This document shows, in pieces, positions 16,042 to 31,003 of a stretch of DNA of 64,000 nt. The DNA lies in IMG/VR virus record IMGVR_UViG_3300031251_000003, positions 94,107 to 158,106 of that record; one strand, written 5' to 3'. Numbering within the stretch: position 1 is the stretch's first letter; each line of letters begins with the position of its first letter. The stretch is from a virus. A program made the translations under genes and the position numbers. The notes beneath the pieces are model-generated. The model did not search any database. It was not told the origin of the DNA and saw only the letters and a program-made list of their open reading frames with translations.

Positions 16042-16063
16042 TCTCTTACAGGAGGTAAGAAAT

Positions 16064-16313: not shown

Positions 16314-16485
16314 CTGTAGTCGAAGATCCAAGAGCCTCGCTCCACTAAAGTTGGCTGTCTTATAATACAGCACCGGAAGAGAAACTCAAGGGGAGACGAA
16401 ATTACGGAGACAAATAGATTAAGCTCCGTAAGATTTATGTTCTATCCTGATGCGTGAATGTTGATCACTAACAAAAGGAGAGAAC

Positions 16486-16686
16486 ATGAAGACAGCAGTA
16501 GGTACTGAAGATCTAACAGGCGCAGTAGTGGTTGATGTTGGCTACAATGATGTGACTCTTGAGAAGGATGGAGTCAGGTTTACTCTTGAACTTGAGTATG
16601 AAGCCGACTACAACAGTTTCTGCGAAGGTAGTTGCTCTTGTTGTGGTAGTTCTGGCTCATCGTACTTCCGGGCCTATAAGGAATAA
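16486..16686 (+). CDS. Small Cys-rich hypothetical protein
   Basis: AAGGAG RBS; CEGSCSCC. Confidence 0.6.
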   Translation: MKTAVGTEDLTGAVVVDVGYNDVTLEKDGVRFTLELEYEADYNSFCEGSCSCCGSSGSSYFRAYKE

Positions 16687-16736
16687 AGAATCGTCTGTCA
16701 CGCCGGATCCTGACGTAAAACTTAGTCCGGCCACAT

Positions 16737-16809
16737 GGCTCTATAGACTAGTTGGTTAGGTCGCTACCCTCTCAAGGTAGAAGTCGGAGTTCGAGTCTCC
16801 GTAGAGCTA
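16737..16809 (+). tRNA. tRNA-Glu(CTC)
   Basis: ctacc-CT-CTC-AA-ggtag. Confidence 0.9.
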
Positions 16810-16812
16810 CTA

Positions 16813-16892
16813 TGATCACGCAGCCACAGGGCAGGGCGCGGCGACCCGACACTTTCTCGGGGAACATGGAGGTTCGAATCCTCTCGGGATCA
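16813..16892 (+). ncRNA. Aberrant tRNA-like element
   Basis: Acceptor-like ends and intact T arm; cccga-cactttc-tcggg loop lacks U33; abnormal D region. Confidence 0.55.
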
Positions 16893-17124
16893 CTGTGGGA
16901 TAGAAAGGGCAACAAAGCGATATAACTTGACGCATCAGGGAGAGTTAGTCCCCTACTATCCCCCTATACTTTAAGAACGTGTGTGTGACGCTGTGACGCA
17001 GCAGAGGCACACTTTCGGGCGGGGGCGTCACCCCACGGTACCGGCGCGGTTTGGGACAACCGTTGTAAGACGACCGGAGGCGGCTTAGCGGCTGCTGAGA
17101 GGGTTCTCAAATGTTCTTATACTA

Positions 17125-17195
17125 TGGCGTATCGTTCAACGGCAGGACGGGTGGCTGTTAACCATCTAATTCAGGTTCGAATCCTGGTATGCCAG
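17125..17195 (+). tRNA. tRNA-Asn(GTT)
   Basis: ggtgg-CT-GTT-AA-ccatc. Confidence 0.9.
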
Positions 17196-17266
17196 CTTTA
17201 AATTCGTAGGGCACTACTCGCTGGTCGGACTAGTTTGCTGGCGAGCAACCCTACGGCGCGTTTCAT

Positions 17267-17337
17267 TCCCCGGTCGTCTAACGGTAGGGCAGATGGCTGT
17301 TAACCATCGTATGAGGGTTCGATTCCTTCCTGGGGAG
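17267..17337 (+). tRNA. tRNA-Asn(GTT)
   Basis: gatgg-CT-GTT-AA-ccatc. Confidence 0.9.
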
Positions 17338-17501
17338 CTTCGCAGTACATTGTTCGTCGTCCGGGAGCATCGCGAGGCATAACGGGTAGCTCAGGGTTAA
17401 ATTCCCTGATAGGGCGGCTAGCCCTAGACTGAACGTATTGATCCTTACTTGTTAAAGCGGGTTTGGGGAATGTGGCAATGTATTGCGCCGGTTTTAATCG
17501 T

Positions 17502-17542
17502 CGCGGATTAGAGAAAAGGTCATCTCGTGAGTCTCATAAACT
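17502..17542 (+). pseudogene. Orphan 5' half of tRNA-Met(CAT)
   Basis: cgcggat acceptor strand, D arm and gagtctcataaact; no T arm follows. Confidence 0.7.
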
Positions 17543-17573
17543 TTTCATGAGTTTACGAACACTAATAGTAGAG

Positions 17574-17942
17574 ATGCCATACAAAGATCCCGAAAAACAG
17601 AAAGAAGCACAGGCTAGATTAAGTGCTGCTTATTATCAAAAGAATAAGAAAAAGATGAAAGTTCGTGCAAAGCAGTATACATACGAACATCGAGAACGTC
17701 TTAAGCAGTTTTTGATAGAGATAAAGTCTGCTCCATGTATGGACTGTGGAAATTCGTTTCCATCATGTGTAATGGACTTTGATCACCGTGAGGGTGAAGA
17801 GAAAAACGGTTGTGTGTCTGTAATGGTGAACCGCGCACTAAGCTTAGATAGAATTAAACAAGAAGTATCTAAGTGCGACCTAGTATGTGCGAACTGTCAT
17901 CGGATTCGAACCTCCACGCGGAAACAAGCCCTGGTGGGCTAG
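17574..17942 (+). CDS. HNH homing endonuclease
   Basis: CMDC...DFDHR...KCDLVCANCHRIR. Confidence 0.85.
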   Translation: MPYKDPEKQKEAQARLSAAYYQKNKKKMKVRAKQYTYEHRERLKQFLIEIKSAPCMDCGNSFPSCVMDFDHREGEEKNGCVSVMVNRALSLDRIKQEVSKCDLVCANCHRIRTSTRKQALVG

Positions 17943-17990
17943 GGAGTCTCATAAACTCTCTCATGGTCAGTTCGATTCTGACTTCCGCTA
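17917..17990 (+). tRNA. tRNA-Met(CAT), with an initiator-like 1:72 mismatch
   Basis: ggagt-CT-CAT-AA-actct; 5' half overlaps the 3' end of the HNH gene. Confidence 0.8.
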
Positions 17991-18149
17991 TTTCAAAATG
18001 CAACTAGGCCGACATAGTTGCGCCATATGGTGAAATGATCGGCATACAATTCTGTCTAACCTAGATAGGAGCGCAAATAATCATGAAGTAAGTTATAACC
18101 TTTGCTCGTATTTGAAGGTTAAATGATTATTCCGCATATACGTGAGACG

Positions 18150-18245
18150 AATGCCGCAGAAGCCGGAAACGTCTAGCAGGGTCAAGTCCGCGATAATCAG
18201 CTTGATGCATTCCCTGTGAATACAGCGAAAGCCGCCGCCGAGGTT
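18150..18245 (+). ncRNA. GAAACGUCU/AGCGAAAGC RNA module, copy 3
   Basis: gaagccggaaacgtct...agcgaaagc. Confidence 0.65.
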
Positions 18246-18388
18246 GAGTCTGGATTACAGTGTATGTGATTATATGATATGATTTTAAGTTTGATTCATC
18301 TTGACTGTGGAGCCGAAAGCTGAGAAGCAGATCAAGAAACTAATGTAGATACATCGAGGGGTCGCGCATCTCTAACACGCGAATATTT

Positions 18389-18478
18389 GGATAGGTACTC
18401 AAGAGGCTTAAGAGGATGGTTTGCTAAACCATTAGAGGATGTCAAAGTCCTGCCAGAGTTCGAATCTCTGTCTATCCG
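18389..18478 (+). tRNA. tRNA-Ser(GCT)
   Basis: Long variable arm; TT-GCT-AA loop. Confidence 0.9.
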
Positions 18479-18549
18479 TGTAAGACGATCCGAAGACGAT
18501 GGGAACGTACGCGCATATCATGCGTGGTGACAGTCTATTCGAGGATCAG

Positions 18550-18622
18550 TGAATTGTAGCTCAACGGTTAGAGCGTTCCCTTCATATGGGAAAGGTAGTC
18601 GGTTCGACTCCGATCAATTCCA
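18550..18622 (+). tRNA. tRNA with CAT anticodon (Met)
   Basis: ttccc-TT-CAT-AT-gggaa. Confidence 0.8.
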
Positions 18623-18710
18623 TTAAAGAGGATGGTAGCCGATAGGTTGGCGTGGGTGTGCTGATTCGGTGAGATGGTTCGTCCTGCCTCATAAGACCAC
18701 GCGAGAATTT

Positions 18711-18797
18711 GGATATATGGCTGAGTGGATTAAAGCGCTAGTCTTGAAAACTAGTATGTGTGAAAGCGCATCCGGGGTTCGAATCCCTGTGTATCCG
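18711..18797 (+). tRNA. tRNA-Ser(TGA)
   Basis: ctagt-CT-TGA-AA-actag; long variable arm. Confidence 0.9.
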
Positions 18798-18977
18798 TAG
18801 GATGGTTTACGACGTGGTAGTGTACGTTTGGCGCTTAAGTGCGTTCTGGCCGAGAATCAAAGGCATCCATCCTTGGGGTTAGAGACTTAGGATTCTGAGG
18901 CGAGCAACCTGAAATGGTAAGGAACGAATAACCGTTGCTGCGGCCTGTCGTTCAAACTGGATCAAGTCTCTTCTTTT

Positions 18978-19064
18978 GGAAACGTGGCCGAGAGGATTAA
19001 GGCGCAGACCTGGAAAGTCTGTTGGTATTTACGTGCTACGCAGGTTCGAATCCTGTCGTTTCCG
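18978..19064 (+). tRNA. tRNA-Ser(GGA)
   Basis: cagac-CT-GGA-AA-gtctg. Confidence 0.9.
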
Positions 19065-19067
19065 CTC

Positions 19068-19205
19068 ATGGGGTGAAAATGGAGAGTCGTCTAGTTCGAT
19101 TCTAGACTTGTGGATGGTTCCACGGCGGTTCAATTCCGCGTTATAAACTTGTGGCAGCAAATAGGGTAGCCCCCGCTCAGAGGGTTCAATTCCCTTACAC
19201 TCCAT
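19068..19205 (+). ncRNA. Structured RNA with three T-loop hairpins
   Basis: Closing helix atggggtg/cactccat; three TTCRATT-loop hairpins. Confidence 0.6.
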
Positions 19206-19250
19206 TTATTTACAATTAGGATTACTAATTACTCTTGTATAATAGATAGA

Positions 19251-19679
19251 ATGATTAATTCTAGAGTTTTAAATGAGAAAATAAAGGCCCAAAAGGAGAT
19301 TACGAATCAACGATTCGCTGATTCAGAAAAAGCTGTTGCAGCAGCTTTAGCTGCTCAAGAAAAGGCAACAGCGGCAGCATTTGCGGCTGCAAAGGAAGCT
19401 GTCATCAAGGCAGAAATTTCCCAACAGCGTGTCAATGAAAGTCAGAATGAATTCCGTGGCCAGCTTAAAGATCAAAATGCCGCTACGGAACGTAATATGA
19501 TGCCTCGTGCTGAAACAGAGTTATTGGTTAGAGAAATTCGAAGTAGTATTCAGGATCTTCAGAAGAGCCGAGATACCATCACAGGCAAGTCAATGGGGAT
19601 AGCTAACTTGACTAGCTCTGTCTATGCGTTTATCTTTGCTATTGCAGCTATTGCAGCTATCGCAGGCCACTTTCTCTAA
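19251..19679 (+). CDS. Coiled-coil protein with C-terminal TM anchor
   Basis: AV.AALAAQEKA...AV.KAE; hydrophobic C-terminus. Confidence 0.7.
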   Translation: MINSRVLNEKIKAQKEITNQRFADSEKAVAAALAAQEKATAAAFAAAKEAVIKAEISQQRVNESQNEFRGQLKDQNAATERNMMPRAETELLVREIRSSIQDLQKSRDTITGKSMGIANLTSSVYAFIFAIAAIAAIAGHFL

Positions 19680-19698
19680 TATGCTATAATGTGATCCC

Positions 19699-19851
19699 AT
19701 GAGGATCATTGGTGAACATTTCACTAGGCAGGGTAAGCCTAAGGTTACTTATGCGACCTTCCAGGGCGCTCAGAAGAAAGCACTGAAGCTTCATATGCGG
19801 GCTTATCAGTGTGGGTTTTGTGGCAAGTATTATCTAACGCATAAAGTTTAG
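19699..19851 (+). CDS. 50-aa phage zinc-finger protein
   Basis: TGnTATAAT 8 nt upstream; RAYQCGFCGKYYLT motif. Confidence 0.7.
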   Translation: MRIIGEHFTRQGKPKVTYATFQGAQKKALKLHMRAYQCGFCGKYYLTHKV

Positions 19852-19933
19852 GAAGATATCCGAACGGTTAGGAAGCGCCCTCGAAAAGCGCCGGTGTTCA
19901 TAGCACTTGGGAGTTCGAATCTCCTGTCTTCCG
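19851..19933 (+). tRNA. tRNA-Ser(CGA)
   Basis: CT-CGA-AA loop; long variable arm. Confidence 0.85.
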
Positions 19934-20148
19934 CTTATCGATAATCCGGGGATAGACCTAGGATTGTGACTGGATTAGGATCGCAACCTGATTACGGCAA
20001 TCTCATGATGGTCAGCTAGGGCCAGCACCTAGAATCGATTTCTAAAAGAACGACTCACGAAAGACTAGTGTAGGAAGGTAAGGGACGCAGGGTTGGGATG
20101 ACGATCTCGACGCGCCTATTTCTGTATCTTTCGTGGGAAGGTTTAACA

Positions 20149-20222
20149 CACGCCTTAGCCAATGGATAGGCAGATCGGCTCCAACCCGATCCAAAGGTGG
20201 GTTCGATTCCTACAAGGCGTGC
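20149..20222 (+). tRNA. tRNA-Trp(CCA)
   Basis: atcgg-CT-CCA-AC-ccgat. Confidence 0.85.
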
Positions 20223-20243
20223 TCAGTCTTATAAGGAGGATGT

Positions 20244-20576
20244 ATGCGAGTTCTATTACTGGTCTTGGTATTCTTGGTAATGGCAACGTCCGCGTTAGCA
20301 TCTCCACCCCGCCCTGCGAGGGCTTTCGATACCTTATGGTGTTGGCAATTGAAAGTTCAGTACACGCTCAAGCTGGGATGGCAAGCTAAGCATTGGAAAT
20401 GCAACCTAGGTAGTTGGGATCCGTATGCTAAAGAATGGACATATCGGGTCTGGGTTGATGAAGTAAAAGGTAGTCGTGTTTATCATGACTATGTGATCCT
20501 CTTTACAGACTTTGCTACTAAGAATTGGACACGAGTTCCCCATGGATATCCTGAAACAGGTGGTCTAAAGGGTTAA
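20244..20576 (+). CDS. Putative secreted protein
   Basis: AAGGAGG RBS; signal peptide ending ALA. Confidence 0.7.
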   Translation: MRVLLLVLVFLVMATSALASPPRPARAFDTLWCWQLKVQYTLKLGWQAKHWKCNLGSWDPYAKEWTYRVWVDEVKGSRVYHDYVILFTDFATKNWTRVPHGYPETGGLKG

Positions 20577-20916
20577 AGTGTGTACATCTCTTTCACTGGA
20601 TTCCAATGGTGTTCATGATTACAGTGACTGTGGAGCGAGAGCTTAGCACCAAGCGCACTCCTATTACTTGCACGGTTGGCTGATCGGTGTAAGCGCCACT
20701 CTTATAAGGTGGTTTAAGCTAGGTTCGACTGATATCCTGAAACAGGTGGTCTAAAGGGTTAAAGTGTGTACATCTCTTTCACTGGATTCCAATGGTGTTC
20801 ATGATTACAGTGACTGTGGAGCGAGAGCTTAGCACCAAGCGCACTCCTATTACTTGCACGGTTGGCTGATCGGTGTAAGCGCCACTCTTATAAGGTGGTT
20901 TAAGCTAGGTTCGACT
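20545..20916 (+). repeat. Perfect 186-bp tandem duplication
   Basis: 20545-20730 is identical to 20731-20916; the first copy ends within the tRNA T loop. Confidence 0.9.
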
Positions 20917-20929
20917 CCTAGACCGTGTA
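20856..20929 (+). tRNA. tRNA-Ile(TAT)
   Basis: ccact-CT-TAT-AA-ggtgg; nearly the same anticodon arm as tRNA-Ile(GAT). Confidence 0.85.
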
Positions 20930-20948
20930 CTTGTGCTATAATGTAGTC

Positions 20949-21443
20949 GTGAACGAAGAACGACAACAAGCTTGGAACCATTACTTCCAGACCGGCGATA
21001 GAGAACCAATCATCAAAGCCTACTGGAAGTCGATCAGTTACATTGCTCATGCTCGTTATCCGGCCTACGAAGAAGATATGTTCCAGGTCGGGCTAATGGG
21101 TTTGCTCAAGGCTATCAGTCGTATCGATGTCAATCGAGTCAAGTCTATTGATGCTTGGGTATGGTTGAATGTTCGTGGAGAAATGTTTAACGTAAAGCTT
21201 GCTAAGCCAACTCTTCCGATTGTTATCGAGTCAGAGAGGTTTGCTATCGAGGAAGACAAAGATCCAAAGATCTACATGCAACAGGCATTCGAGGTTCTAA
21301 ACGAGCGCGATAGGTATATTCTTGATAGTATTTACTATAAGAATAAGACACGTCAGGCTCTAGGCAAGGAGTTGGGCATTACCGGCATGAGAGTCGGCCA
21401 ACTAGAACAAAGAGCATTAAAGCAGTTGAGAGAAGTATTGTAA
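20949..21443 (+). CDS. RNA polymerase sigma factor (sigma70 family, regions 2 and 4)
   Basis: EDMFQVGLMGLLKAISR; LNERDRYIL...LGKELGITGMRVGQLEQRALKQLR. Confidence 0.9.
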   Translation: MNEERQQAWNHYFQTGDREPIIKAYWKSISYIAHARYPAYEEDMFQVGLMGLLKAISRIDVNRVKSIDAWVWLNVRGEMFNVKLAKPTLPIVIESERFAIEEDKDPKIYMQQAFEVLNERDRYILDSIYYKNKTRQALGKELGITGMRVGQLEQRALKQLREVL

Positions 21444-21516
21444 GCACAGGTACTCAAGCGGTTAAGAGGCCACTCTGATAAGGTGGTATGCGAAAGTTCG
21501 AATCTTTCTCTGTGCA
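21444..21516 (+). tRNA. tRNA-Ile(GAT)
   Basis: ccact-CT-GAT-AA-ggtgg. Confidence 0.9.
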
Positions 21517-21540
21517 TAGGATCGGATTATTGATCCAAAG

Positions 21541-21742
21541 TAAGGCGACCAATATCGTGGCGCTAGCGAAAATCACAAAAACGACTTTACAGATATTTTC
21601 ATTTGTAGGTTCGAATCCTACTCCCCGCTCTTCACGCGGGGATGGCGAAATTGGCAAACGCGCTGGGCGATCAGCCCGGTTGTGAAATATCAATCAAGCG
21701 AAAGTTGTGTTAGCTAGAATAAGGCGCGTGATGCTAGCCTTT
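21541..21742 (+). ncRNA. Circularly permuted tRNA-like RNA (YrlA/Y-RNA-like)
   Basis: Order is T arm, acceptor stem closed by a loop (tccccgc-tcttcac-gcgggga), then D arm, all on a long closing stem. Confidence 0.75.
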
Positions 21743-21769
21743 TATTTAAGGTTATATGCCTCTTATAGT

Positions 21770-21913
21770 CTAGTGAGGATCAAAGAAACGTCTCATGGTA
21801 TGGGCTTCCAAACCTATACTACGTGTAGCTCAAATGGGAGAGCCGCCGCCTGAAAAGCGGTGGGTTGGGGGTTCGAGTCCCTCCACGAAAGTAGCGAAAG
21901 CTTTGGGAGTTAG
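21770..21913 (+). ncRNA. GAAACGUCU/AGCGAAAGC RNA module, copy 4, enclosing a tRNA-Phe
   Basis: gaggat-caaa-gaaacgtct...agcgaaagc-tttg-ggag. Confidence 0.75.
21819..21894 (+). tRNA. tRNA-Phe(GAA) with bulged acceptor stem
   Basis: ccgc-CT-GAA-AA-gcgg; acceptor ctacgtg/cac-gaaa-gtag. Confidence 0.7.
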
Positions 21914-21945
21914 TCGAGTGAAAAGTGGTTAATTAGCCTTATTCC

Positions 21946-22268
21946 GGGAGCGTCCCGGTTTCGATGTGGAATTACGGTTCTGACTTCAATCCGTGGAAAC
22001 ATGATGGCCACGTAAAAAACATGTAACGTACTAAATGCAAACGCTAATATGAGCGTCCCGGACTTCATCCCTGATTGGGTAATGGATGAGTCCTTAGTTG
22101 CTGCTTAACTAGGAAACCTAATAAGCAGAGACTCTCAGGAAAGACTGAGTGGCGGAGGGGCGACTGCCCTCCATGCTTGACAAGTACGACCGTGATGGGT
22201 ATAATCTATGATTGTAAGCGTTAGTTCAACGATTACCGCAGACGCGAGTTCGACTCTCGCCGCTTCCA
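21946..22268 (+). ncRNA. ssrA: tmRNA
   Basis: GGGAGCG/CGCTTCCA acceptor with G3:U; T arm; resume context taaat-gca; tag ANANMSVPDFIPDWVMDESLVAA*. Confidence 0.93.
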
Positions 22269-22303
22269 TATGTACTATATTTCACTCCCTCCAAAGGAAG
22301 TTA

Positions 22304-22498
22304 ATGCACGATAGATCAGACTACCATATCCACAAGGATGAGCAAGGGAAACTACACAGGTGTTACCACAACTGCCGAAATATCTTACCCAACTGGCAGT
22401 TCTGGGTTGGTATGACGATGGGATTCCCTCTCGAACATCTGATTTGGCAACATCTTTGGCCCTTCTATTTAGTTAGTAATCTTTTGGGCCTTTCGTGA
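22304..22498 (+). CDS. His-rich hypothetical membrane protein
   Basis: AAGGAAG RBS before MHDRSDY. Confidence 0.55.
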   Translation: MHDRSDYHIHKDEQGKLHRCYHNCRNILPNWQFWVGMTMGFPLEHLIWQHLWPFYLVSNLLGLS

Positions 22499-22566
22499 CC
22501 TTGGCCGAGTGGTTTAGGTATGGCTCTGCAAAAGCTATTACATCAGTTCGAATCTGATAGGTCACT
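22495..22566 (+). tRNA. tRNA-Cys(GCA)
   Basis: CT-GCA-AA loop; U73. Confidence 0.9.
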
Positions 22567-22666
22567 TGAAGTACAATGTTTCATACAGGATCTACCTCTG
22601 GCTCATAGCTAGGCGGTTTAGATTTGAATGGTTGGAAAGGCTGGTTCGTAAACCTATAAACCAGAG

Positions 22667-22879
22667 ATGGAGAAGGTAATGGCACAGTTGCAGAAGACAT
22701 TCATTGCACGATTCTACGATAGCTCACGACATCAATTTGCTACCAACAAGGTAGTCGCGGCAAACTTCGTGATGGCAGGAGAAGTTGCCCATGAGTGGGC
22801 AGAAGATCACTACCATGGACGTGCAACGAAGATCAAACTAGAATCCTCCAAAGGTGGAGAAGTTGTGTGTTCCGACTAA
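22667..22879 (+). CDS. Hypothetical protein
   Basis: 70-aa ORF upstream of rpsL. Confidence 0.55.
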   Translation: MEKVMAQLQKTFIARFYDSSRHQFATNKVVAANFVMAGEVAHEWAEDHYHGRATKIKLESSKGGEVVCSD

Positions 22880-22891
22880 AAGGAAGGGTGT

Positions 22892-23293
22892 ATGGCGACA
22901 ATTAATCAGCTTGTAAGAAAGGGCCGAACGGCCAAGAGGAAGAAGGATAAGTCCCGTCATTTAAAGGGTAACCCTCAGGTTGCCGGTACTGTCTTGCGCG
23001 TCATGGTTCTCAACCCTTGTAAGCCGAATTCTGCCGAACGTCATTCGTGCAGGGTTAGACTCTCCAATGGCGGTGAGGTAACCTGTTACGTCCCTGGTCG
23101 TGGTATGAATATCCAGGAGCACAGCAGAGTCCTTGTTCGCGGCGGAATTGCTCCTGATCTCCGTGGAGTCAAGTACAAGGTTGTCCGTGGTAATCGTGAC
23201 TGTGCCGGGGTCAGTGATGAGATGGGTGGAAAGAAGAATTCCACACCAGTTCCTCGTAAGAATTCTCGTTCACTCTACGGAGTGAAGAAGTAG
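22892..23293 (+). CDS. rpsL: 30S ribosomal protein S12 (uS12), divergent
   Basis: [38 protein letters not shown]...DL.GV.Y, RS.YGVK. Confidence 0.96.
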
Positions 23294-23405
23294 TGTTACA
23301 TCACCTTATCGCTCGTTCCGATGCCTGTTGACGCAGGCTTAGGGAGCAAAACTGAAGCGTCAACTTCGTCTCAATATCGGCACAAGCCGAAGCGATAAGG
23401 ATCTT

Positions 23406-23489
23406 GCCCGCCTGGTGGAATGGTATACACGGTTGGCTTAAACCCAACTGCCTATAACGGGCTTGCGAGTTCGAATCTCGCGGTGGGTA
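23406..23489 (+). tRNA. tRNA-Leu(TAA)
   Basis: gttgg-CT-TAA-AC-ccaac. Confidence 0.9.
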
Positions 23490-23511
23490 CTTGGTAAGGA
23501 TGGTAGTTCAT

Positions 23512-23595
23512 ACCGGTGTGCTGGAATTAGGTATACAGGGGCGTCTCAAAAACGTCTGCTCAAAAGGCATGAGAGTTCGATTCTCTCCATCGGTA
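23512..23595 (+). tRNA. tRNA-Leu(CAA)
   Basis: ggcgt-CT-CAA-AA-acgtc. Confidence 0.9.
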
Positions 23596-23894
23596 CTGTC
23601 GGTATCACGCTGGCGCTCTAAGGAGTCGAGGCCGAATATCGGGATGCATCTCGTGAGAGAAGGGGATCTTGACGCCCGGAGTTTTGTCTTTATGTCTGAA
23701 ACTCCTTTATGTTCAATAAACTAACTCATAACGGTACAGCACCTGAGTCAGTGGATGGAGTCGTCTAGTTCTCTAACAGTCAAATTGGCGTCCTTTCTAG
23801 ATAAGGTAATCCTCTAAGATTGAGATTGACTAGCGGCGAACTTGAGGTACGGAAGTACCTTAGCCGACGACATTTATGATAAACTGTAGTATTA

Positions 23895-23967
23895 CCCTCC
23901 ATAGCTTCAACGGTAAAGCACGGGCCTTTTAAGCCATGAGTTCTGGGTTCGAATCCTAGTGGGGGGA
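23895..23967 (+). tRNA. tRNA-Lys(TTT)
   Basis: CT-TTT-AA loop. Confidence 0.85.
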
Positions 23968-24044
23968 CTTGAGATCTAGGGTGTGGGTTATACGTCCACG
24001 TTTCCTTATAGGCGATGCGCTCGGTAGTGTCGTGATCTCTATTA

Positions 24045-24117
24045 GCCCTCTTAATTCAGTGGACAGAATGTTAGCCTTCGAAGCTAAACGTCGGGAGTTC
24101 GAATCTCTCAGAGGGTA
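24045..24117 (+). tRNA. tRNA-Arg(TCG)
   Basis: ttagc-CT-TCG-AA-gctaa. Confidence 0.9.
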
Positions 24118-24131
24118 TCTAGAAAGAAGAC

Positions 24132-24160
24132 TTGACAACCAGACAACAATGAGGTATACT
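24132..24160 (+). promoter_or_regulatory. Sigma70 promoter (likely leaderless transcript)
   Basis: TTGACA-N17-TATACT, 6 nt before GTG. Confidence 0.85.
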
Positions 24161-24166
24161 TAAGCC

Positions 24167-24385
24167 GTGGCTAAGAAACACAAGCCGAAGGAAAAGACTG
24201 AAACGAAGTTTTCGAAGTATCTTCCCGGCGAGAGTACATGGACGGGACGACGCAATAAGACGAGGCAGGATCTAATCCCAATGGGTCAACGTGATCGCGT
24301 TGAAACAGCACAGAAGATCAGATCCTTCTCGATGCAGCATAAGCCATCTTGCACTAAAGATTGGCTGAAGTTGCGAGTACATTGA
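24167..24385 (+). CDS. Small basic protein
   Basis: Lys/Arg-rich, 72 aa, directly after a promoter. Confidence 0.6.
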   Translation: MAKKHKPKEKTETKFSKYLPGESTWTGRRNKTRQDLIPMGQRDRVETAQKIRSFSMQHKPSCTKDWLKLRVH

Positions 24386-24547
24386 TAACTTAGGTGGTGG
24401 TACCGGGAACCCCGATCCGGTGACGCGGAAGCGTATGGTGTAAGGGTTATGCACGCCACATGTACTAAGCCTTGGGATGCGATTCTCAAGGTACCCTTTC
24501 TAGCAGGGGATGTGCCTGGGCACCGCTCCAGAGCCAGCTAGATGTAA

Positions 24548-24621
24548 CTGGATGTAGGAAAGCTTGGTAATCCGTCTGCTTTGGGAGCAGAAGAGCGTGA
24601 GTTCGAATCTCACCGTCCAGA
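24548..24621 (+). tRNA. tRNA-Pro(TGG)
   Basis: tctgc-TT-TGG-GA-gcaga. Confidence 0.9.
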
Positions 24622-24623
24622 CT

Positions 24624-24834
24624 GAAGAGTTAGGAGGTTGGCCTAAAGGCAGCCACCCTTTAAAGAGTAGACTTACGTGAGCCGACCACGCTGAGCGAAA
24701 GCCTATTTGAGAGTCATGATCGCGCAAAGGTGACAATGATCCCGCGCCCGGAATGGCAACATGACGAAGACCAAGGAAACGACTTGGAAGAATAAACGGG
24801 TTAGTCTTTTGGCGTAACAGCACACTATCTCTTT
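24624..24834 (+). ncRNA. 23S rRNA GTPase-associated-centre (H43/H44) mimic with ~143-nt insertion
   Basis: aggaggttggcctaaaggcagccaccctttaaagagt ... gcgtaacagcacact matches 23S nt ~1054-1105. Confidence 0.85.
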
Positions 24835-24843
24835 TAGAATTGA

Positions 24844-24918
24844 CTGGATATAGCTCAGCCTGGTTAGAGTACGCCCTTGGGGAGGGTGAGGCCGCAAGTT
24901 CGAATCTTGCTATCCAGA
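24844..24918 (+). tRNA. tRNA-Pro(GGG)
   Basis: cgccc-TT-GGG-GA-gggtg. Confidence 0.9.
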
Positions 24919-24921
24919 TAA

Positions 24922-24992
24922 CAGGATGTTGTATAGTGGTAATATACTTGCTTCGGGAGCATGAGTCAGAGGTTCGAGTCCTCTCATCCTGA
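24922..24992 (+). tRNA. tRNA-Pro(CGG)
   Basis: TT-CGG-GA loop. Confidence 0.85.
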
Positions 24993-25048
24993 TATGTACT
25001 AGCTTTCTTATGGTGATCTCGCCCTACTAATGGGTAGGTGATAAATAA

Positions 25049-25216
25049 ATGAGACAACATATAGAAGGTGGATTACTTTCATTCTTAGGATTATGTGCTG
25101 CTGCTCTCTTCTTTGGTCTTCTCGTATTTGGAGGATCCATTAGCGATTGGCCATTAGAGGTAGCAGGCTTCTTTGCTCTAGCTATTGCGTTCGTTCTGGA
25201 ACGCTTAGGGTTGTAA
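25049..25216 (+). CDS. 55-aa two-TM membrane peptide
   Basis: MRQHIEGGLLSFLGLCAAALFFGLLVF... Confidence 0.6.
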   Translation: MRQHIEGGLLSFLGLCAAALFFGLLVFGGSISDWPLEVAGFFALAIAFVLERLGL

Positions 25217-25451
25217 GACTCCGCTGGAATGCGGCGCATAGGGAGGTTCTTCGAGCCGTTGATCTATGTGATGGTGGAAACCGTGCCCGTTGAGCCGGGT
25301 AAAGGTACGACTAGCCATCGTATCGAAAGCGTAGGGCAGCGCGGTTGTAGCTGGTGGTGAGGGCGCAGCTATGGTATGGCTAAACGCCGAATCGTTCGAA
25401 GCGACAAGGCTTACGGGGTTGGTAATTCTCACGACTTGCCGATCCCGCCAA

Positions 25452-25523
25452 TGCGGTGTAGTCTAATGGTAGTGACTTCCGGCTCTGAACCGGACAGTGT
25501 TGGTTCGAATCCAGCCTCCGCAG
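25452..25523 (+). tRNA. tRNA-Gln(CTG)
   Basis: tccgg-CT-CTG-AA-ccgga. Confidence 0.9.
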
Positions 25524-25813
25524 CTAACTCTAACGAGTAACAAGTGATTACAGCCGCTGATTGCCACGAGCGGTAAAGGATGGTCTTTTATGCCGGACGC
25601 TAGAATATGGCAGGTATAAAACTAAGTGTGTGGGTACCCGTAGCAATCACAGCCGCCGTTTTGTAATCCAGGATGTGGATTGTCGAGGTATGGTATAGAC
25701 ACCACTTCTAGAAATCCACCATACATGCGCTACCTTGGAAAGGTGTAACGGTTCATAACCTGCCTTTCCTCCAATCCCCACTTAGGCTGAAATATACCTA
25801 GGTGGGGAACCAA

Positions 25814-25894
25814 GCATATGTTGAGCAAAGGCTAGCTCCGCTGTCTGTAAAACAGCCGTCTCCGACTATGTAGGTTCGAATCCTACCATATGCA
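25814..25894 (+). tRNA. tRNA-Tyr(GTA)
   Basis: gctgt-CT-GTA-AA-acagc; long variable arm. Confidence 0.9.
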
Positions 25895-25898
25895 CTGA

Positions 25899-25970
25899 TG
25901 GGAAATCGGTTAATGGTTAAACCAAGAGCCTTTGAAGCTCTGACTTTGGGTTCGAGTCCCAATTTCCCTA
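25899..25970 (+). tRNA. tRNA-Gln(TTG)
   Basis: agagc-CT-TTG-AA-gctct. Confidence 0.9.
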
Positions 25971-26007
25971 TAGGTCAAGCTGGTGGGCCTGAAGCACTAG
26001 CATTTAC

Positions 26008-26081
26008 GGAAGCGTAGCTCAGTTGGTTAGAGCACCGGCCTGTCACGTCGGTAGTCGCGGGTTCGAGTCCCGTCGTTTCCG
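26008..26081 (+). tRNA. tRNA-Asp(GTC)
   Basis: ccggc-CT-GTC-AC-gtcgg. Confidence 0.9.
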
Positions 26082-26490
26082 CTCTTTGGACGATGACCTG
26101 TGGAAGGATTTATGCCAAACTTCCTAAAGGGTAAAAAGCTAGCGAGTAAGGCGAAGCTGGGGCACCACAAAATGCGTCAGTGGATGAAAGCTAGCGAATC
26201 AAGCTGCTGTAGGCATAACGGTAGTGTAATGAGCGAGTCTAACTCAAGTATTTTCGCTCCACCGTCCAAGGTTTTAAGTTGACCAATCATAATTTGTATG
26301 ATATACTAAGTCATGGTTACTAAAACGGACATAAAAACTCTTGAATTCGATGTAGATGGGAAGACAATCGAGCTTCAAGTTAAATGTGAGTTGGTTAGTA
26401 AAACTTGGAAACTTACGATTAATTGTAAGGATCCCGGTCGTGTTGAGTTTGAAACCATCATGAGTAAGATGGGTGTTATAAGATAAATAA

Positions 26491-26566
26491 CGGGGTGTGG
26501 TGTAGTCCGGTCTAACACGCTTGCCTGTCACGCAAGAGAACGAGGGTTCAAATCCCTTCATCCTGA
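26491..26566 (+). tRNA. tRNA-Asp(GTC)
   Basis: cttgc-CT-GTC-AC-gcaag. Confidence 0.9.
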
Positions 26567-26636
26567 TTGAAGATCGTCTAAAGTAGGACGCCTGGTTTAA
26601 CGGGAGATTCTAGAGGTTAACGTCTCTGGCTTCAAA
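26567..26636 (+). pseudogene. Degenerate tRNA-like element
   Basis: ttgaag/cttcaa ends and D arm present; decayed anticodon and T loops. Confidence 0.4.
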
Positions 26637-26642
26637 ATACTT

Positions 26643-26717
26643 GCCTCGTTGGTCTAGCGGTCTAGGATACCGGGTTTTCACCCCGCGTGAACAAGGGTTC
26701 GAATCCCTTACGAGGTA
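26643..26717 (+). tRNA. tRNA-Glu(TTC)
   Basis: TT-TTC-AC loop. Confidence 0.85.
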
Positions 26718-27101
26718 CCTTAATAAAAATTAGACACCAGGGTTTCAGAGCAAAGCGGTAGCTCCGAGCGCTCTTATGAGATCTTGGGTGTTGTGACGGA
26801 AAAGTGCCTATCTTGCTTCCGCAAAGCGGTGAGCTAGGTATTGAACGTATAAGCGGCGAAAGCTCTGGGCAACCGGAGCCGGTAGCAGCCGAAGTAAAGG
26901 AATCGAAACCAGCGGCTTAGCGGCTGAGGGACTAGGTTCTGGGCGGGGGTTGTACCTCGTACAGTGGTGGCTCGACAGGGCAGCGGAAGTAGAAGAGAAA
27001 CCATATGACAAGGTAGCTTGCCTCTTCTTGCGGGATACCAAGACCCGCCAACACAGTCTAAATCTTGGGGATGTTTGGGTAAAACTGAGCATCCCCACCA
27101 A

Positions 27102-27177
27102 CCTTCAGTAGCTCAACGGTAGAGCGGTACGCTGTATGGAAGCGTTCGGGTTGCGAGTTCAATTCTCGTCTGAGGGT
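27102..27177 (+). tRNA. Atypical tRNA with extended anticodon stem (ATG in loop)
   Basis: Canonical acceptor, D and T arms; gtacgct-gtatgga-agcgttc. Confidence 0.55.
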
Positions 27178-27242
27178 CTTCTCGCTCGACACTCCCCTCC
27201 TAGGCCAATGATCTAGCCCGTGGGAAAGTGCGGCGAGTTCTA

Positions 27243-27315
27243 GCCAGCCTCGTATAACGGCATATTACACCGCACTTGTAATGCGGGTATTTCGGTTCAA
27301 TTCCGAAGGTTGGCT
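27243..27315 (+). tRNA. tRNA-Thr(TGT)
   Basis: ccgca-CT-TGT-AA-tgcgg. Confidence 0.9.
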
Positions 27316-27420
27316 CTCGTGTGTGGAAATGAAACTATGTGACGAGCGCGTTCCGGCATAGAAGTAGTGGCCTTTCTGGGTTCGAGTCCCAGCACCGATT
27401 TATCAAAACAAGGAGGCACT

Positions 27421-27774
27421 TTGCTGAAATGGCTAAAGTTGCCGATACTAACTGTACTAATCCTAAGTAGTTTGGGAAATCTCAGGACAAACGGCGCTAA
27501 AGCTGTCTCAGTTCGTAGTCTCACTGTTTTAGAGACTGCCTATTGTCTTAGGGGAACTATGGCCAACGGCCACTATGTTCACCCTGGGGCAATAGCGGTT
27601 GATCCAAGAGTTATTCCTATGGGATCTCGTATCTTTGTCCCCGGCTATGGTTGGGGAACAGCAGAGGATACGGGTGGTGCAATTATCGGCTATCATATCG
27701 ATGTATGGATGAGCGATTGCTCACAAGCTATGAGATCTACCCGATGGAATGTACGGATCAAAATTTCACGTTGA
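27421..27774 (+). CDS. Secreted 3D-domain (MltA-like) cell-wall protein
   Basis: TAY, IAVDPRVIPMGS, AEDTGGAI.G..IDVW; AAGGAGG RBS before TTG. Confidence 0.9.
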   Translation: MLKWLKLPILTVLILSSLGNLRTNGAKAVSVRSLTVLETAYCLRGTMANGHYVHPGAIAVDPRVIPMGSRIFVPGYGWGTAEDTGGAIIGYHIDVWMSDCSQAMRSTRWNVRIKISR

Positions 27775-27818
27775 GTGGGAAGGTAACAAATATAGGTGGC
27801 ATTTGGGGCCAAATGGCT

Positions 27819-27911
27819 ATGCCGAAATTACTAGAAGAGTTAGCTAAATGTGATGTTGTTTGTGCTAACTGCCATCTTCGTAGACATCATTCCGCGTTGT
27901 TCGTAGACTAA
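27819..27911 (+). pseudogene. HNH endonuclease C-terminal remnant
   Basis: EELAKCDVVCANCHLRRH, paralogous to the HNH at 17574; stop codon lies inside tRNA-His. Confidence 0.75.
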
Positions 27912-27970
27912 TTGGTTAAGTCCCTACCCTGTGAAGGTAGCCTATACGGGTTCGAATCCCGCCGAACAAC
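27896..27970 (+). tRNA. tRNA-His(GTG)
   Basis: G-1:C73; ctacc-CT-GTG-AA-ggtag. Confidence 0.9.
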
Positions 27971-28037
27971 TCAAGGGGATCTCCTTGATATGCCGTGGTT
28001 CGTCGGTTACGAATTCTTGGAGCAAGATCCCCTCCAT

Positions 28038-28151
28038 GCAGCAGTCGCTTAAGTGGGAAAGCACCTACTGATAAAGAAGTCTCCATGGTTATAGACCGGT
28101 CAAACGGTGGAGATTTGTAGGAGATCATTGGTTCGAATCCAGTCTGTTGTT
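28038..28151 (+). ncRNA. tRNA scaffold with a 48-nt structured insert in place of the anticodon loop
   Basis: Acceptor gcagcag/ctgttgt, D arm, cctac/gtagg stem and T arm are all intact. Confidence 0.75.
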
Positions 28152-28155
28152 CTTT

Positions 28156-28230
28156 GAGAGATTAGCATAATTGGACTAATGTTCCAGGTTGTGATCCTGG
28201 CTAATTTCGGTTCGAATCCGAAATCTCTCT
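28156..28230 (+). tRNA. tRNA-His(GTG)
   Basis: ccagg-TT-GTG-AT-cctgg. Confidence 0.8.
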
Positions 28231-28323
28231 TGCCTTGATAACCCCAGTCGCTTCGGCGGCTCCGAGATAGGCACGGAATGAAACAGACCATTGGGAGCAG
28301 ATGGCTTTAGCCGATCTGTTTTC

Positions 28324-28396
28324 GCCTGAGTAGTGATAACGGTCAGCACACATCCTTGGTAAGGATGGAGTTTGGGTTCGATTCCCAGCTTGGGCT
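28324..28396 (+). tRNA. tRNA-Thr(GGT)
   Basis: catcc-TT-GGT-AA-ggatg. Confidence 0.9.
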
Positions 28397-28397
28397 T

Positions 28398-28529
28398 ATG
28401 AGTAACTTCAAACGCAAGAAATCAAGACGTTCGGTAAAGTGTACCATGTGTACACCATTTAGATGGTTAGGAAATACCAAAGAACGGCGACCCTTTAAAG
28501 ACCGTCGCCAACTTCAGAAGGAGGAATAG
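28398..28529 (+). CDS. 43-aa basic CxxC peptide
   Basis: MSNFKRKKSRRSVKCTMCTPFRWLGN... Confidence 0.55.
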   Translation: MSNFKRKKSRRSVKCTMCTPFRWLGNTKERRPFKDRRQLQKEE

Positions 28530-28531
28530 CA

Positions 28532-29260
28532 TTGGCAGCAGTTGATCAGGCAATCTATGTTATCATCGATGGCAGTGGCTCGATGAGTAGCGTGAAGCAT
28601 GATGTAGTCAAGGGCATTAACGATTTCATTACGGAACAGCAGGACGACATCAAGGGCACACAGGATGTTGTGTTGTTTTCTCTGACATCCTTTGACACGA
28701 ATGTCCAGGAAATCTACGTGAGAGAGAATCTAGAGCTAGTCAATCCTGTCTCTTTGAAGGATACTTACTTGGGCGGTGGTACATCTCTTCTAGATGCTAT
28801 TGGCCGTACACTGACTAAGGCTGAGGATGAACAGGCTGATCGTAACATCGTCGTGATCTATACCGATGGTGGCGAGAATTCAAGTCATGAGTTCACTAAG
28901 ACTCAGGTTGGTGATTTGATCGACAAGCTGACTGGTACAGGAGATTGGCAGATCATCTATCTCGGTGCTGAGTTTGCCGACTTCGCAGAAGATCGTCAGG
29001 GCTTTGGTGCTATTGCTGGTGCCGCAGCGGGTGGTACCTTTACTGGTATGAACACGTCGAAGAATGATGTTGGTGCCACGTTCTCTAACCTGTCCCAGAC
29101 ATCCATCTATTACAGAGGGATGCACACCAATTCTGCTAAGAATCTTGTTGCTCGCGGTGGAGTCGTGGCCGCAGCAGCGGAGGATATTGGCCTTACCTGG
29201 AACGAGGATGACACAACGGTTATTCCGGCCGATGTAGTGGAACCTAAGAAGAAAGCCTAG
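28532..29260 (+). CDS. von Willebrand factor A domain protein
   Basis: MIDAS DGSGSM, GGTSLLDAI, TDGGENSS. Confidence 0.9.
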   Translation: MAAVDQAIYVIIDGSGSMSSVKHDVVKGINDFITEQQDDIKGTQDVVLFSLTSFDTNVQEIYVRENLELVNPVSLKDTYLGGGTSLLDAIGRTLTKAEDEQADRNIVVIYTDGGENSSHEFTKTQVGDLIDKLTGTGDWQIIYLGAEFADFAEDRQGFGAIAGAAAGGTFTGMNTSKNDVGATFSNLSQTSIYYRGMHTNSAKNLVARGGVVAAAAEDIGLTWNEDDTTVIPADVVEPKKKA

Positions 29261-29301
29261 GGGAGAGGACGCCATCTGCTCTCTAAAAAATGATGGCACT
29301 A

Positions 29302-29372
29302 GCCAGTTTAGTATAGTGGGAATACTCGCCTTTCGTAAGGGCGAAACTAGGGTTCGATTCCCTAATCTGGCT
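29302..29372 (+). tRNA. tRNA-Thr(CGT)
   Basis: cgcct-TT-CGT-AA-gggcg. Confidence 0.9.
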
Positions 29373-29408
29373 CTGCTTATCAGGCGCGTCCCGGTAGCTC
29401 CGGGTTAA

Positions 29409-29480
29409 GAGCGTGTAGTTCAGCGGGAGAACGTCTGGGTGACAACCAGAAGATCGTAGGTTCGATTCCTACCATGCTCA
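29409..29480 (+). tRNA. tRNA-Val(GAC)
   Basis: tctgg-GT-GAC-AA-ccaga. Confidence 0.9.
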
Positions 29481-29548
29481 TACGGCCCTTGTGGGGTCCA
29501 AAACAATACAAATTCTATTTAGATCTGAAAGGGATAAGGTGAATAGAT

Positions 29549-29737
29549 ATGAAGACTCGTTGGATGATTATTCCGACCGTGGTGGCCCTTTTAGGTATGA
29601 TTGTTGTGTTCGTAGTCGGGTATCTTACTTACGGTATTTGGGCCGGTTTCTTTGTTTCTATTCTTTTCGGAGTTATTAGCTTGATTCTTCTCATCTGGGC
29701 TGCTATAATGGATGGAGAAGATAATACGCATGTATAG
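29549..29737 (+). CDS. Small two-TM membrane protein
   Basis: Hydrophobic 62-aa ORF with RBS. Confidence 0.6.
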   Translation: MKTRWMIIPTVVALLGMIVVFVVGYLTYGIWAGFFVSILFGVISLILLIWAAIMDGEDNTHV

Positions 29738-29800
29738 CAAAGTTGGTATTGCGCTTCCTTGCCATGGAAGAGGCCACGAGTTCGAGTCTCGTTACATGCT
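29728..29800 (+). tRNA. tRNA-Gly(GCC)
   Basis: cttcc-TT-GCC-AT-ggaag. Confidence 0.9.
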
Positions 29801-29804
29801 TTAC

Positions 29805-29876
29805 GCACCAGTAATGTAGTGGTTAACATGACAGTCTTCCAAACTGTATACCAGAGTTCGAATCTCTGTTGGTGCA
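29805..29876 (+). tRNA. tRNA-Gly(TCC)
   Basis: acagt-CT-TCC-AA-actgt. Confidence 0.9.
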
Positions 29877-29880
29877 TCGT

Positions 29881-29953
29881 TGCTCCGTAGATTAGAGGAC
29901 AAATCACTTCCCTGCGAAGGAAGAAATCACGAGTTCGAATCTCGTCGGGGCTA
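29881..29953 (+). tRNA. tRNA-Arg(GCG)
   Basis: cttcc-CT-GCG-AA-ggaag. Confidence 0.85.
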
Positions 29954-29990
29954 TAGTTCAGCTAACACCGATTTATGATATAATAGGTAT

Positions 29991-30317
29991 CTCAGTAGAT
30001 GGACATACGCTGCATCGTGTATCTATCGGTGTAGAGGAAGTTCGGGACATCCTTCTAGGGGAGCCAAGGAACCTAGAGAAAAACGTGCGGCAGTAGTGGG
30101 AGTCAGGTGCATTGGGTAAACCTTCGGGCATAATGCGGTGCTATCACCCTCCTGACGCCTTACCACGAGAATCGGCGGGATGCGATCACAAGCAGATACA
30201 TCAGCTACGATGATATCGGGTAGTGAGCAGCCCTTCGGGGCCAGGGATTGAACAGACCCTGAGATAGATGTATGTCGCCCTTGACAGGGTACAAAATTCC
30301 GGCTATAATCTACTGAA
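29991..30317 (+). ncRNA. rnpB: RNase P RNA (catalytic subunit)
   Basis: P1 tcagtagat/atctactga, P2 gacatac/gtatgtc, CR-I GAGGAAGTTCGGGAC, P5 catcc/ggatg, AGATAGATG, CR-V ACAAAATTCCGGCTAT. Confidence 0.9.
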
Positions 30318-30326
30318 GCAATGTAC

Positions 30327-30398
30327 GGCGATAAGCCTGCGGTGGGCAACTTCTCTCATAAGGAAGTCTGAGGTAAGGTTCGATTCCTACTATCGCTA
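30327..30398 (+). tRNA. tRNA with CAT anticodon (Met or Ile2)
   Basis: cttct-CT-CAT-AA-ggaag. Confidence 0.8.
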
Positions 30399-30400
30399 CT

Positions 30401-30661
30401 ATGAGCAAACACAACAAAACCAAGATCGAAAAGGTACTAAGGAACGAAGTCAACGTACTACGTTTCAAGCCGAAGACAGATCCTAAGGACTCTAAGCCAG
30501 AGAAGAAGATCGGCAAGTTCGCTAACTGGTGTCGTCTTCAGGGTCATCCTGCAACGTGCGGGTGTGCCTATAGCAAGATCGAAATCTCGGCTAAGAACCA
30601 TCCAGTTAGTAATGGAGACTGTGTTAACGGCAGAGACTGCCCTAACCACCCGAGAAGGTAG
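30401..30661 (+). CDS. Basic Cys/His hypothetical protein
   Basis: 86-aa ORF filling the gap between two tRNAs. Confidence 0.55.
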   Translation: MSKHNKTKIEKVLRNEVNVLRFKPKTDPKDSKPEKKIGKFANWCRLQGHPATCGCAYSKIEISAKNHPVSNGDCVNGRDCPNHPRR

Positions 30662-30675
30662 TGTACCCAATCTAA

Positions 30676-30747
30676 TCCCTTGTAGGTTAGAGGATAAACC
30701 AGTGGTTTCCTAAACCACAATCCCGAGTTCGAGTCTCGGCAGGGGGA
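30676..30747 (+). tRNA. tRNA-Arg(CCT)
   Basis: gtggt-TT-CCT-AA-accac. Confidence 0.9.
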
Positions 30748-30749
30748 CT

Positions 30750-30964: not shown

Positions 30965-31003
30965 AGCCCGGATGAGAGAAAATCTCATCCGGGCTTTCCT
31001 TTT
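30965..31003 (+). terminator. Rho-independent terminator closing the RNA island
   Basis: agcccggatgaga-gaaaa-tctcatccgggct followed by a T-rich tail. Confidence 0.85.

Follow-up and report, generated by a model that had tools for sequence, protein, structure and literature searches.

The GTPase-associated centre (GAC) of bacterial 23S rRNA (positions 1051–1108 in Escherichia coli) is the 58-nt fragment to which ribosomal protein uL11 and thiostrepton bind. The C-terminal domain of uL11 binds exactly this 58-nt fold, and the lower part of helix H42, below position 1051, is the site of uL10. RNAs that imitate the rRNA site of an r-protein away from the ribosome are known from the r-protein leaders, including the L10 leader (RF00557) and the L1 leader, which are cis-acting 5' leaders with a loose resemblance to rRNA. 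Other described systems with a bearing on the present one are 6S RNA and CsrB, and the tmRNA, ROOL and GOLLD RNAs of phage tRNA clusters.

The RNA described here, which will be called the mimic, lies in the window, i.e. the whole stretch of 64,000 nucleotides that was analysed, which makes up the final 64 kb of a 158,106-bp IMG/VR virus record estimated to be complete. It matches the bacterial GAC position for position in sequence and secondary structure, and shares with it the U.Y mismatch at 1060:1078, the 1082:1086 pair, A1084 and A1085, the triple partners G1071 and C1072, and the GUAAYA loop containing A1095. Unlike the ribosomal domain, the mimic has its own separate gene, located in the tRNA arrays of phages; it has a closing helix of arbitrary sequence in place of H42, and A1101 (which pairs with U1090) in place of U1101; its H44 is interrupted by an insert and a UUUR linker; and its 1065–1070 loop is less conserved. 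In contrast to the r-protein leaders it is a near-exact copy; tRNA genes and no r-protein gene are located downstream of it, and no Rfam leader model matches it. With 6S RNA and CsrB it would share, by analogy, the proposed logic of an abundant stable RNA that titrates a protein by imitating its nucleic-acid ligand, but their ligand, fold and origin differ from those of the mimic and neither copies an rRNA domain. The tmRNA, ROOL and GOLLD RNAs occupy the same genomic niche and presumably use the same route of expression and processing, but are unrelated to it in sequence and structure.

The mimic belongs to a large undescribed family of phage RNAs. Rfam 15 holds no family for it, either in the window or in eight canonical members, and no published description was found in the full-text literature, subscription journals lying outside the scope of that search. 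The first-pass annotation, made from the letters of the sequence, had stated that no described phage RNA of this kind was known; this still stands for Rfam 15 and the full-text literature, and the records of the cultured phages which carry the RNA leave it unannotated.

The phage, its tRNA island and the mimic

The source is a large myovirus-type phage, and its host is probably actinobacterial, since the portal protein shares 39% identity with its counterparts in Gordonia phage Pupper, Rhodococcus phage E3 and the cluster C mycobacteriophages, and baseplate, terminase and DNA polymerase genes are present. The tRNA island comprises 46 tRNA genes and a tmRNA gene at window positions 12170–30748, every one of them on the + strand (ARAGORN, Rfam). 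An ORF with sigma-70 regions 2 and 4 (20925–21443) is located inside the island adjoining tRNA-Ile genes, and an AAA_33/zeta-toxin-like P-loop kinase ORF (10070–10579, - strand), possibly an RNA or nucleotide kinase, lies directly upstream of it. Three perfect TTGACA-17-TATAAT sequences occur on the tRNA strand (14974–15002, 22177–22205 and 30281–30309), and a strong terminator-like hairpin (30965–30995) closes the island. Promoter-match totals in the island are not above those in shuffled sequences. The three perfect matches suggest several transcription units which would be read by a host-type sigma-70. The coordinates of the mimic and its surroundings are collected in Table 1.

Table 1. Mimic and neighbouring features, in window coordinates; numbers of the type 1051 refer to E. 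coli 23S rRNA
Feature	Position	Strand	Basis or remark
sigma-70-like promoter match, nearest upstream	24132–24160	+	TTGACA-17-TATACT, 11/12; consensus match only
tmRNA in island	21946–22271	+	
tRNA-Pro(UGG), upstream neighbour	24548–24622	+	ARAGORN; Rfam tRNA 63.6 bits
predicted whole RNA	24623–24843	+	3' end of tRNA-Pro(UGG) to RNase P site of tRNA-Pro(GGG)
closing helix, 5' strand	24624–24633	+	pairs with 24825–24834; 24629–24633 = 1051–1055 (top of H42)
H43 equivalent (1057–1081)	24635–24659	+	loop 24643–24651; G1058-C1080 pair; ungapped alignment to E. coli 23S
junction and H44 5' strand	24660–24668	+	U1082–A1086 = 24660–24664; G1087–U1090 = 24665–24668; 23S alignment
lineage-specific 139-nt insert	24669–24807	+	closed by AGACU (24669–24673) / AGUCU (24803–24807)
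UUUG linker, insert helix to G1091	24808–24811	+	
H44 hairpin and 3' strand (1091–1103)	24812–24824	+	A1101 at 24822 faces U1090 (24668)
closing helix, 3' strand	24825–24834	+	1104–1108 plus 5 more nt
tRNA-Pro(GGG), downstream neighbour	24844–24918	+	tRNA prediction, Rfam tRNA

When aligned with E. coli rrlH, window positions 24629–24668 correspond without gaps to 1051–1090 of 23S rRNA, and 24812–24829 to 1091–1108, with the equivalents of A1067 and A1095 at 24645 and 24816, respectively. The 5' half alone matched a fragment of 23S with 89.7% identity in 39 nt (blastn, E 3e-5), and the Rfam model of bacterial LSU rRNA (RF02541) aligned 24628–24685 with its positions 1091–1152 (21.3 bits, E 1.2e-5). 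The mimic does not qualify under RF02541 as a 23S gene or gene fragment: the match covers 58 nt only, scores 21.3 bits against a cut-off of 50, and has no neighbouring LSU helices, and the model found no further LSU match in the whole 158-kb phage genome. In the H43 loop C1065, A1068 and G1070 are the sole differences of the 5' half from the bacterial consensus. The tertiary-core nucleotides U1060, G1071, C1072, A1084, A1085 (the last two in the junction), A1088, G1091-C1100 and C1092-G1099 are all present. The closing helix consists of 10 bp with a single U.U mismatch and caps the RNA ends where rRNA has H42. The first-pass annotation had described two halves that reproduce the GAC, including the A1067 and A1095 equivalents, between two tRNA-Pro genes (both of which are real), with a new helix capping the ends and no other rRNA nearby; every detail of it that can be read from the sequence is confirmed.

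The Rfam 15 search of the window gave no family matching the mimic; a permissive threshold produced only DUF805b, which at E 6 was rejected as a chance match. Comparison of the region with GenBank phages by blastn returned tRNA matches only. When viral contigs were scanned for exact 33-mers and 18-mers containing the window's own H43 loop, nothing was retrieved, nor was anything by a 28-mer scan of metagenome contigs, and this loop variant is therefore without a near-identical copy in the scanned viral and metagenome collections. The minimum free energy fold of the whole element (z -1.31) is uninformative because the GAC fold relies on tertiary contacts.

The closing helix begins 2 nt past the upstream tRNA, which has no encoded CCA, and stops 9 nt before the downstream one. 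Because the helix abuts both tRNAs and the upstream tRNA lacks CCA, the mimic is likely to be released by tRNA processing. We envisage a stable non-coding RNA, co-transcribed with the phage tRNA array, of which the 5' end would be generated by 3' maturation of tRNA-Pro(UGG) and the 3' end by RNase P cleavage at tRNA-Pro(GGG). With its ends taken from these putative processing sites the RNA would measure about 215–221 nt. The earlier proposal of a tRNA-excised RNA thus fits the setting.

A family in tRNA arrays of large phages

IMG/VR was scanned with two patterns, a core 18-mer (GCAGCCANCNTTTAAAGA) and a 3'-half pattern lacking in real rRNA (TTTRGCGTAANAGCACAC), each of which gave at least 119 matches. 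By simple anchoring, both halves plus the closing helix were recognized at no fewer than 147 loci in addition to the window, corresponding to at least 124 distinct elements; the covariance model added 52 matches in the 58 remaining loci. Together, anchoring and the model give at least about 190 viral loci, of 205 listed, with a common architecture: a variable closing helix, an rRNA-like 1055–1090 segment, an insert with its own closing helix, a UUUR linker, the sequence GCGUAAYAGCACAC and the second strand of the closing helix. The insertion site is fixed between U1090 and G1091 in all the insert-bearing members listed. A covariance model (R1) was built from an alignment (A1) of 42 short-insert members, from which the window was left out and to which the GAC secondary structure had been assigned; it gives the window 90.4 bits (E 2.7e-28 on a rough calibration) over 24623–24835 and all 165 model positions, with no second match in the window or the phage genome.

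Of the 124 elements, 52 have a tRNA at a distance of 60 nt or less, and the 481 tRNAs found up to 3 kb away all share the strand of the element (both counts among the matches listed). Unannotated copies were located in the Pseudomonas phages pf16, Astolliot, Milchi and UNO-G1W1, in Cronobacter phage GAP32, Pectobacterium phage CBB, Serratia phage BF, Yersinia phage fHe-Yen9-04 and several Erwinia phages, in the Xanthomonas phages XacN1, XbC2 and XaC1, and in Aeromonas phage 4_4572, Paenibacillus phage Pd_22F and one Vibrio phage. In pf16 the copy occupies an unannotated stretch that separates tRNA-Asn from tRNA-Pro, and in GAP32 a gap between two hypothetical genes. The element is absent from the five cultured actinophages examined, among them the portal-level relatives Pupper, E3 and TinyTim, and is therefore dispensable for such phages.

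Across 185,579 prokaryote species, represented by one genome each, the rRNA-excluding pattern occurred 67 times, mostly on MAG contigs, with at least 35 strong model matches. This rarity indicates that the family is mainly one of phages and mobile elements. A Candidatus Limenecus MAG contig (L236:3993-5389) has three R1 matches (102, 42 and 23 bits) in one tRNA array, so that more than one copy, or divergent paralogues, may be present in some genomes. A 1.9-kb circular 23S fragment deposited as 'plasmid' pLR-72_5 of an E. coli assembly (L003, NZ_AP027617.1) has a GAC unlike that of E. coli and is probably an assembly artefact or contaminant.

Selection acts on the rRNA fold

In alignment A1 87% of the cells at paired positions are paired, whereas shuffled versions reach 65%; both sides are changed in 21 of the 28 pairs. 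An alignment of 98 distinct sequences made to R1, which takes in the window and its closest relative, gave 88.0% paired cells versus 66.7% in shuffles, none of the 500 shuffles being as high; register-shift controls gave 36–57%. Double compensatory changes were present here at 22 of the 28 pairs. The closing helix, the sequence of which is free, covaries at all eleven of its family pairs, and the insert-closing helix at five out of five. Within the rRNA-like core of these 98 sequences the 1058:1080 pair covaries (GC 39, UA 37, AU 16, CG 3, GU 2, UG 1), as does 1082:1086 (UA 80, CG 13, AU 3). The pair 1090:1101 is U-A in members with an insert but C-G in L109 and L027, which have none; A1101 is found in 73 of 76 members among the matches listed, compared with U1101 in the Rfam LSU consensus. 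Homologues with compensatory changes and variable inserts, which the first-pass annotation had proposed to look for, thus exist (22 of 28 pairs doubly changed in the 98 sequences), and selection is shown to act on the rRNA fold of the mimic.

The closest relative in an IMG/VR search with the DNA polymerase was IMGVR_UViG_3300004463_000262 (L286), the polymerase of which is 75% identical to that of our phage; a search with the neighbouring VWA-domain protein found none. Its mimic (1501–1734; R1 match of 75.2 bits) is located in an array with the same tRNA order, one slot earlier, after tRNA-Arg(UCG) and before tRNA-Pro(UGG). In the window that slot is a 430-nt non-coding gap (24118–24547) with no Rfam match, in which the near-consensus promoter sequence at 24132–24160 is located. 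Alignment of the two phages is possible for the core halves and for some 30 nt of the insert only, and fails for the surrounding spacers. Where the window has G-C at 1058:1080 the relative has U-A; its closing helix is of different sequence but still paired, and the base of its insert is GGGC/GUCC as against AGACU/AGUCU. The core has therefore been kept through compensatory changes while the spacers and the greater part of the insert diverged, as expected of selection on fold rather than sequence. The relative also has U1072 and U1092 where the window has C and C, these being partners in the C1072.(C1092-G1099) triple, which may represent tertiary covariation.

The (near-)invariant positions of the family are G1055, U1060, G1071, C1072, A1073, A1077, A1084, A1085, A1088, G1091-C1100, C1092-G1099 and A1098. 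In E. coli A1085 forms an A-minor triple with G1055=C1104, and both A1084 and A1085 make A-minor contacts to the top of H42 (PMC1919483). The nucleotides of the H44 loop (G1093, U1094, A1095 and A1098) are highly conserved across the family, A1095 being kept in 70 of 76 members among the matches listed. For the remaining nucleotides (U1060, G1071, C1072 etc.) we take the tertiary roles to be those of the L11-RNA crystal structures. The 1065–1070 loop is looser: in base frequencies from pattern-anchored samples, in which positions within the anchor are biased so that each half was read from the sample anchored in the other, U1065 is found in 78, A1067 in 69, G1068 in 65 and A1070 in 74 of the 86 matches listed. 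By comparison this loop is wholly upper-case, i.e. highly conserved, in the Rfam LSU consensus, from which conservation on the rRNA side was judged. The C1065, A1068 and G1070 of the window are minority states (8/86, 20/86 and 12/86 among the matches listed).

These data bear on the proposal that the element is a functionless captured fragment of host rRNA, or part of an rRNA gene that is split or contains an intron, which we consider extremely improbable. The sequence is clearly derived from 23S rRNA, but no other LSU sequence is found in the complete 158-kb genome, A1101, UUUR and the fixed insertion site are family-wide signatures foreign to rRNA, and the compensatory changes are strong; moreover, the window gave no match to group I or group II introns, and the inserts end in G or A and can be as short as 23 nt. 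The covariation and the family-specific signatures exclude a functionless fragment, and the objection, raised with the first description, that this is a decaying one fails because the H43/H44 tertiary nucleotides are near-invariant among the homologues. Nor is the resemblance to 23S rRNA due to chance. Host rRNA contamination of the family alignment was also considered and is excluded by the genomic contexts.

The insert evolves differently. That of the window has no sequence relative among the 121 other inserts in the matches listed, folds no better than shuffled sequence (z -0.46), and can be aligned over only about 30 nt with that of the closest relative; for these reasons it resembles an expansion segment that evolves rapidly at a permissive site and not a conserved domain. 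Of the 'inserted RNA domain' in the first-pass annotation there remains, accordingly, an insert closed by agact/agtct that splits the two halves; its standing as a conserved domain does not. Family inserts range from 23 to 369 nt with a median of about 130 and an interior without common sequence (matches listed). By contrast the linker is nearly invariant, its first three positions being U in 73–75 of 76 members and the fourth G in 61 and A in 15 (again among the matches listed). Pairing of its UUU with A1084–A1086 was rejected since the linker is unchanged when 1086 becomes G or U. Group I and group II intron families gave no Rfam match in the window at E up to 10, and an intron reading of the insert was likewise rejected, there being no intron core, a last inserted base of G (61) or A (15), and inserts of such small size. 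One family member, on a 160-kb contig of a Propionibacterium MAG (L274:3180-5085), has its halves 1.85 kb apart, and the gap holds an opposite-strand 512-amino acid DDE transposase; an IS element has therefore inserted into the insert of this mimic.

Should the insert be the working part of the RNA, the GAC fold, perhaps protected by uL11, would serve as a scaffold that stabilizes or presents it. Nearly all members do carry inserts, and 34 of 122 in the matches listed contain a CACCCC…GGUAAGG module, but insert-free members of 54–68 nt exist (L109:1589-1656 and L027:3159-3212) and the inserts, of such different lengths, have no sequence in common, that of the window being without relatives or excess stability. 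We regard a scaffold as very unlikely. The module itself (e.g. in L007, L009 and L101, among the matches listed) has the form CACCCC-N-(GNRA or UAAC tetraloop)-N-GGUAAGG, lies precisely 11 nt upstream of the insert's 3' end, and shows covariation of its N:N pair; it is absent from the insert of the window.

Possible function in the infected cell

The ends of the RNA are predicted to fold into a self-closed replica of the GAC, comprising the top of H42, H43 and H44, from which the 139-nt insert and the UUUG linker would protrude between 1090 and 1091. Such an RNA would imitate the GAC away from the ribosome. The phage genome encodes no L11 or L12 domain, and any protein partner would therefore be that of the host. 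The best explanation overall, which we hold with moderate confidence, is that the mimic is a GAC-like RNA of tRNA arrays whose likeliest ligand off the ribosome would be host uL11. A decoy for uL11 is the most economical reading because the minimal uL11-binding fold has been copied, the uL10 site dropped and the A1067 loop relaxed. Three qualifications apply: the minority substitutions C1065, A1068 and G1070 are found beside A1067 in the predicted fold of the window; uL11 sits stably in ribosomes, so that a sponge may reach only the free pool; and a plain uL11 decoy does not account for the conserved UUUR linker or for the obligatory insertion site.

Other ligands of the GAC have to be considered. 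The mimic might be a sponge or platform for EF-G, IF2, the EF-Tu ternary complex or the C-terminal domain (CTD) of RelA, alone or together with uL11. The GAC is the docking site of translation GTPases and of RelA, the CTD of which binds L11 and nucleotides 1051–1108 (reviewed in PMC8801413), and the retention of A1095 in 70 of 76 listed members is in keeping with this. But on the ribosome these factors depend for their binding on the sarcin-ricin loop and the L12 stalk as well, both missing from the mimic, and within the core it is the 1067 loop that is conserved least; we rate such a sponge as quite unlikely. Selection for the uL11-binding fold is favoured over selection for factor contact since the nucleotides of the fold are near-invariant and the A1067 loop is relaxed.

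The RNA could also divert agents that attack the GAC, sparing the ribosomes that the phage needs; the candidates are toxins of the host or of competitors, defence enzymes and antibiotics with specificity for H43/H44, e.g. Tre23-type ADP-ribosyltransferases, thiopeptides and 1067 methyltransferases. GAC-directed toxins and drugs do exist: Tre23 ADP-ribosylates H44 at 1095–1098, and thiopeptides bind H43/H44 (PMC8661411). The high conservation of G1093, U1094, A1095 and A1098 across the family accords with such a role, as does the overlap of the probable actinobacterial host range with thiopeptide producers. Against it, the family is widespread among phages with Gram-negative hosts, into which thiopeptides hardly penetrate; at position 1067 the A that is the key contact for thiopeptides is replaced in 17 of the 86 matches listed; a stoichiometric decoy would be weak against a catalytic toxin; and we know of no phage-defence system aimed at the GAC. 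This function is unlikely in our opinion, and the retention of A1067 in only 69 of 86 members weakens both the thiopeptide and the factor readings relative to uL11.

If host uL11 is indeed the ligand, titration of its free or exchangeable pool would give rise to uL11-poor ribosomes, still translating yet unable to activate RelA/Rel. RelA needs uL11 to make (p)ppGpp on the ribosome (PMC8801413). The result would be a blunted (p)ppGpp alarm, whether raised by starvation or by the flood of uncharged phage tRNAs, and we may speculate that a phage with dozens of extra tRNAs has reason to silence it. That the mimic is a dedicated anti-stringent-response RNA of large tRNA-rich phages, capturing uL11 to stop activation of RelA/Rel, is put forward tentatively, as a possibility on the unlikely side.

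An off-ribosome role would mean that phages have refashioned a ribosomal domain as an RNA tool that works in trans. The family would then represent a novel class of non-coding RNAs of viruses, spanning hundreds of large phages and many host phyla, and a direct link between phage tRNA islands and the control of the host's translation or stress machinery would become testable. Were the anti-stringent reading true, the mimic would stand for a novel class of RNAs for host takeover, derived from a part of the ribosome. The cultured carriers (pf16, GAP32, XacN1 and others) open the mimic to ordinary genetics and biochemistry, and the variation within the family provides a mutational map, drawn by nature, of the GAC fold, with one site in H44 at which inserts of any size are tolerated.
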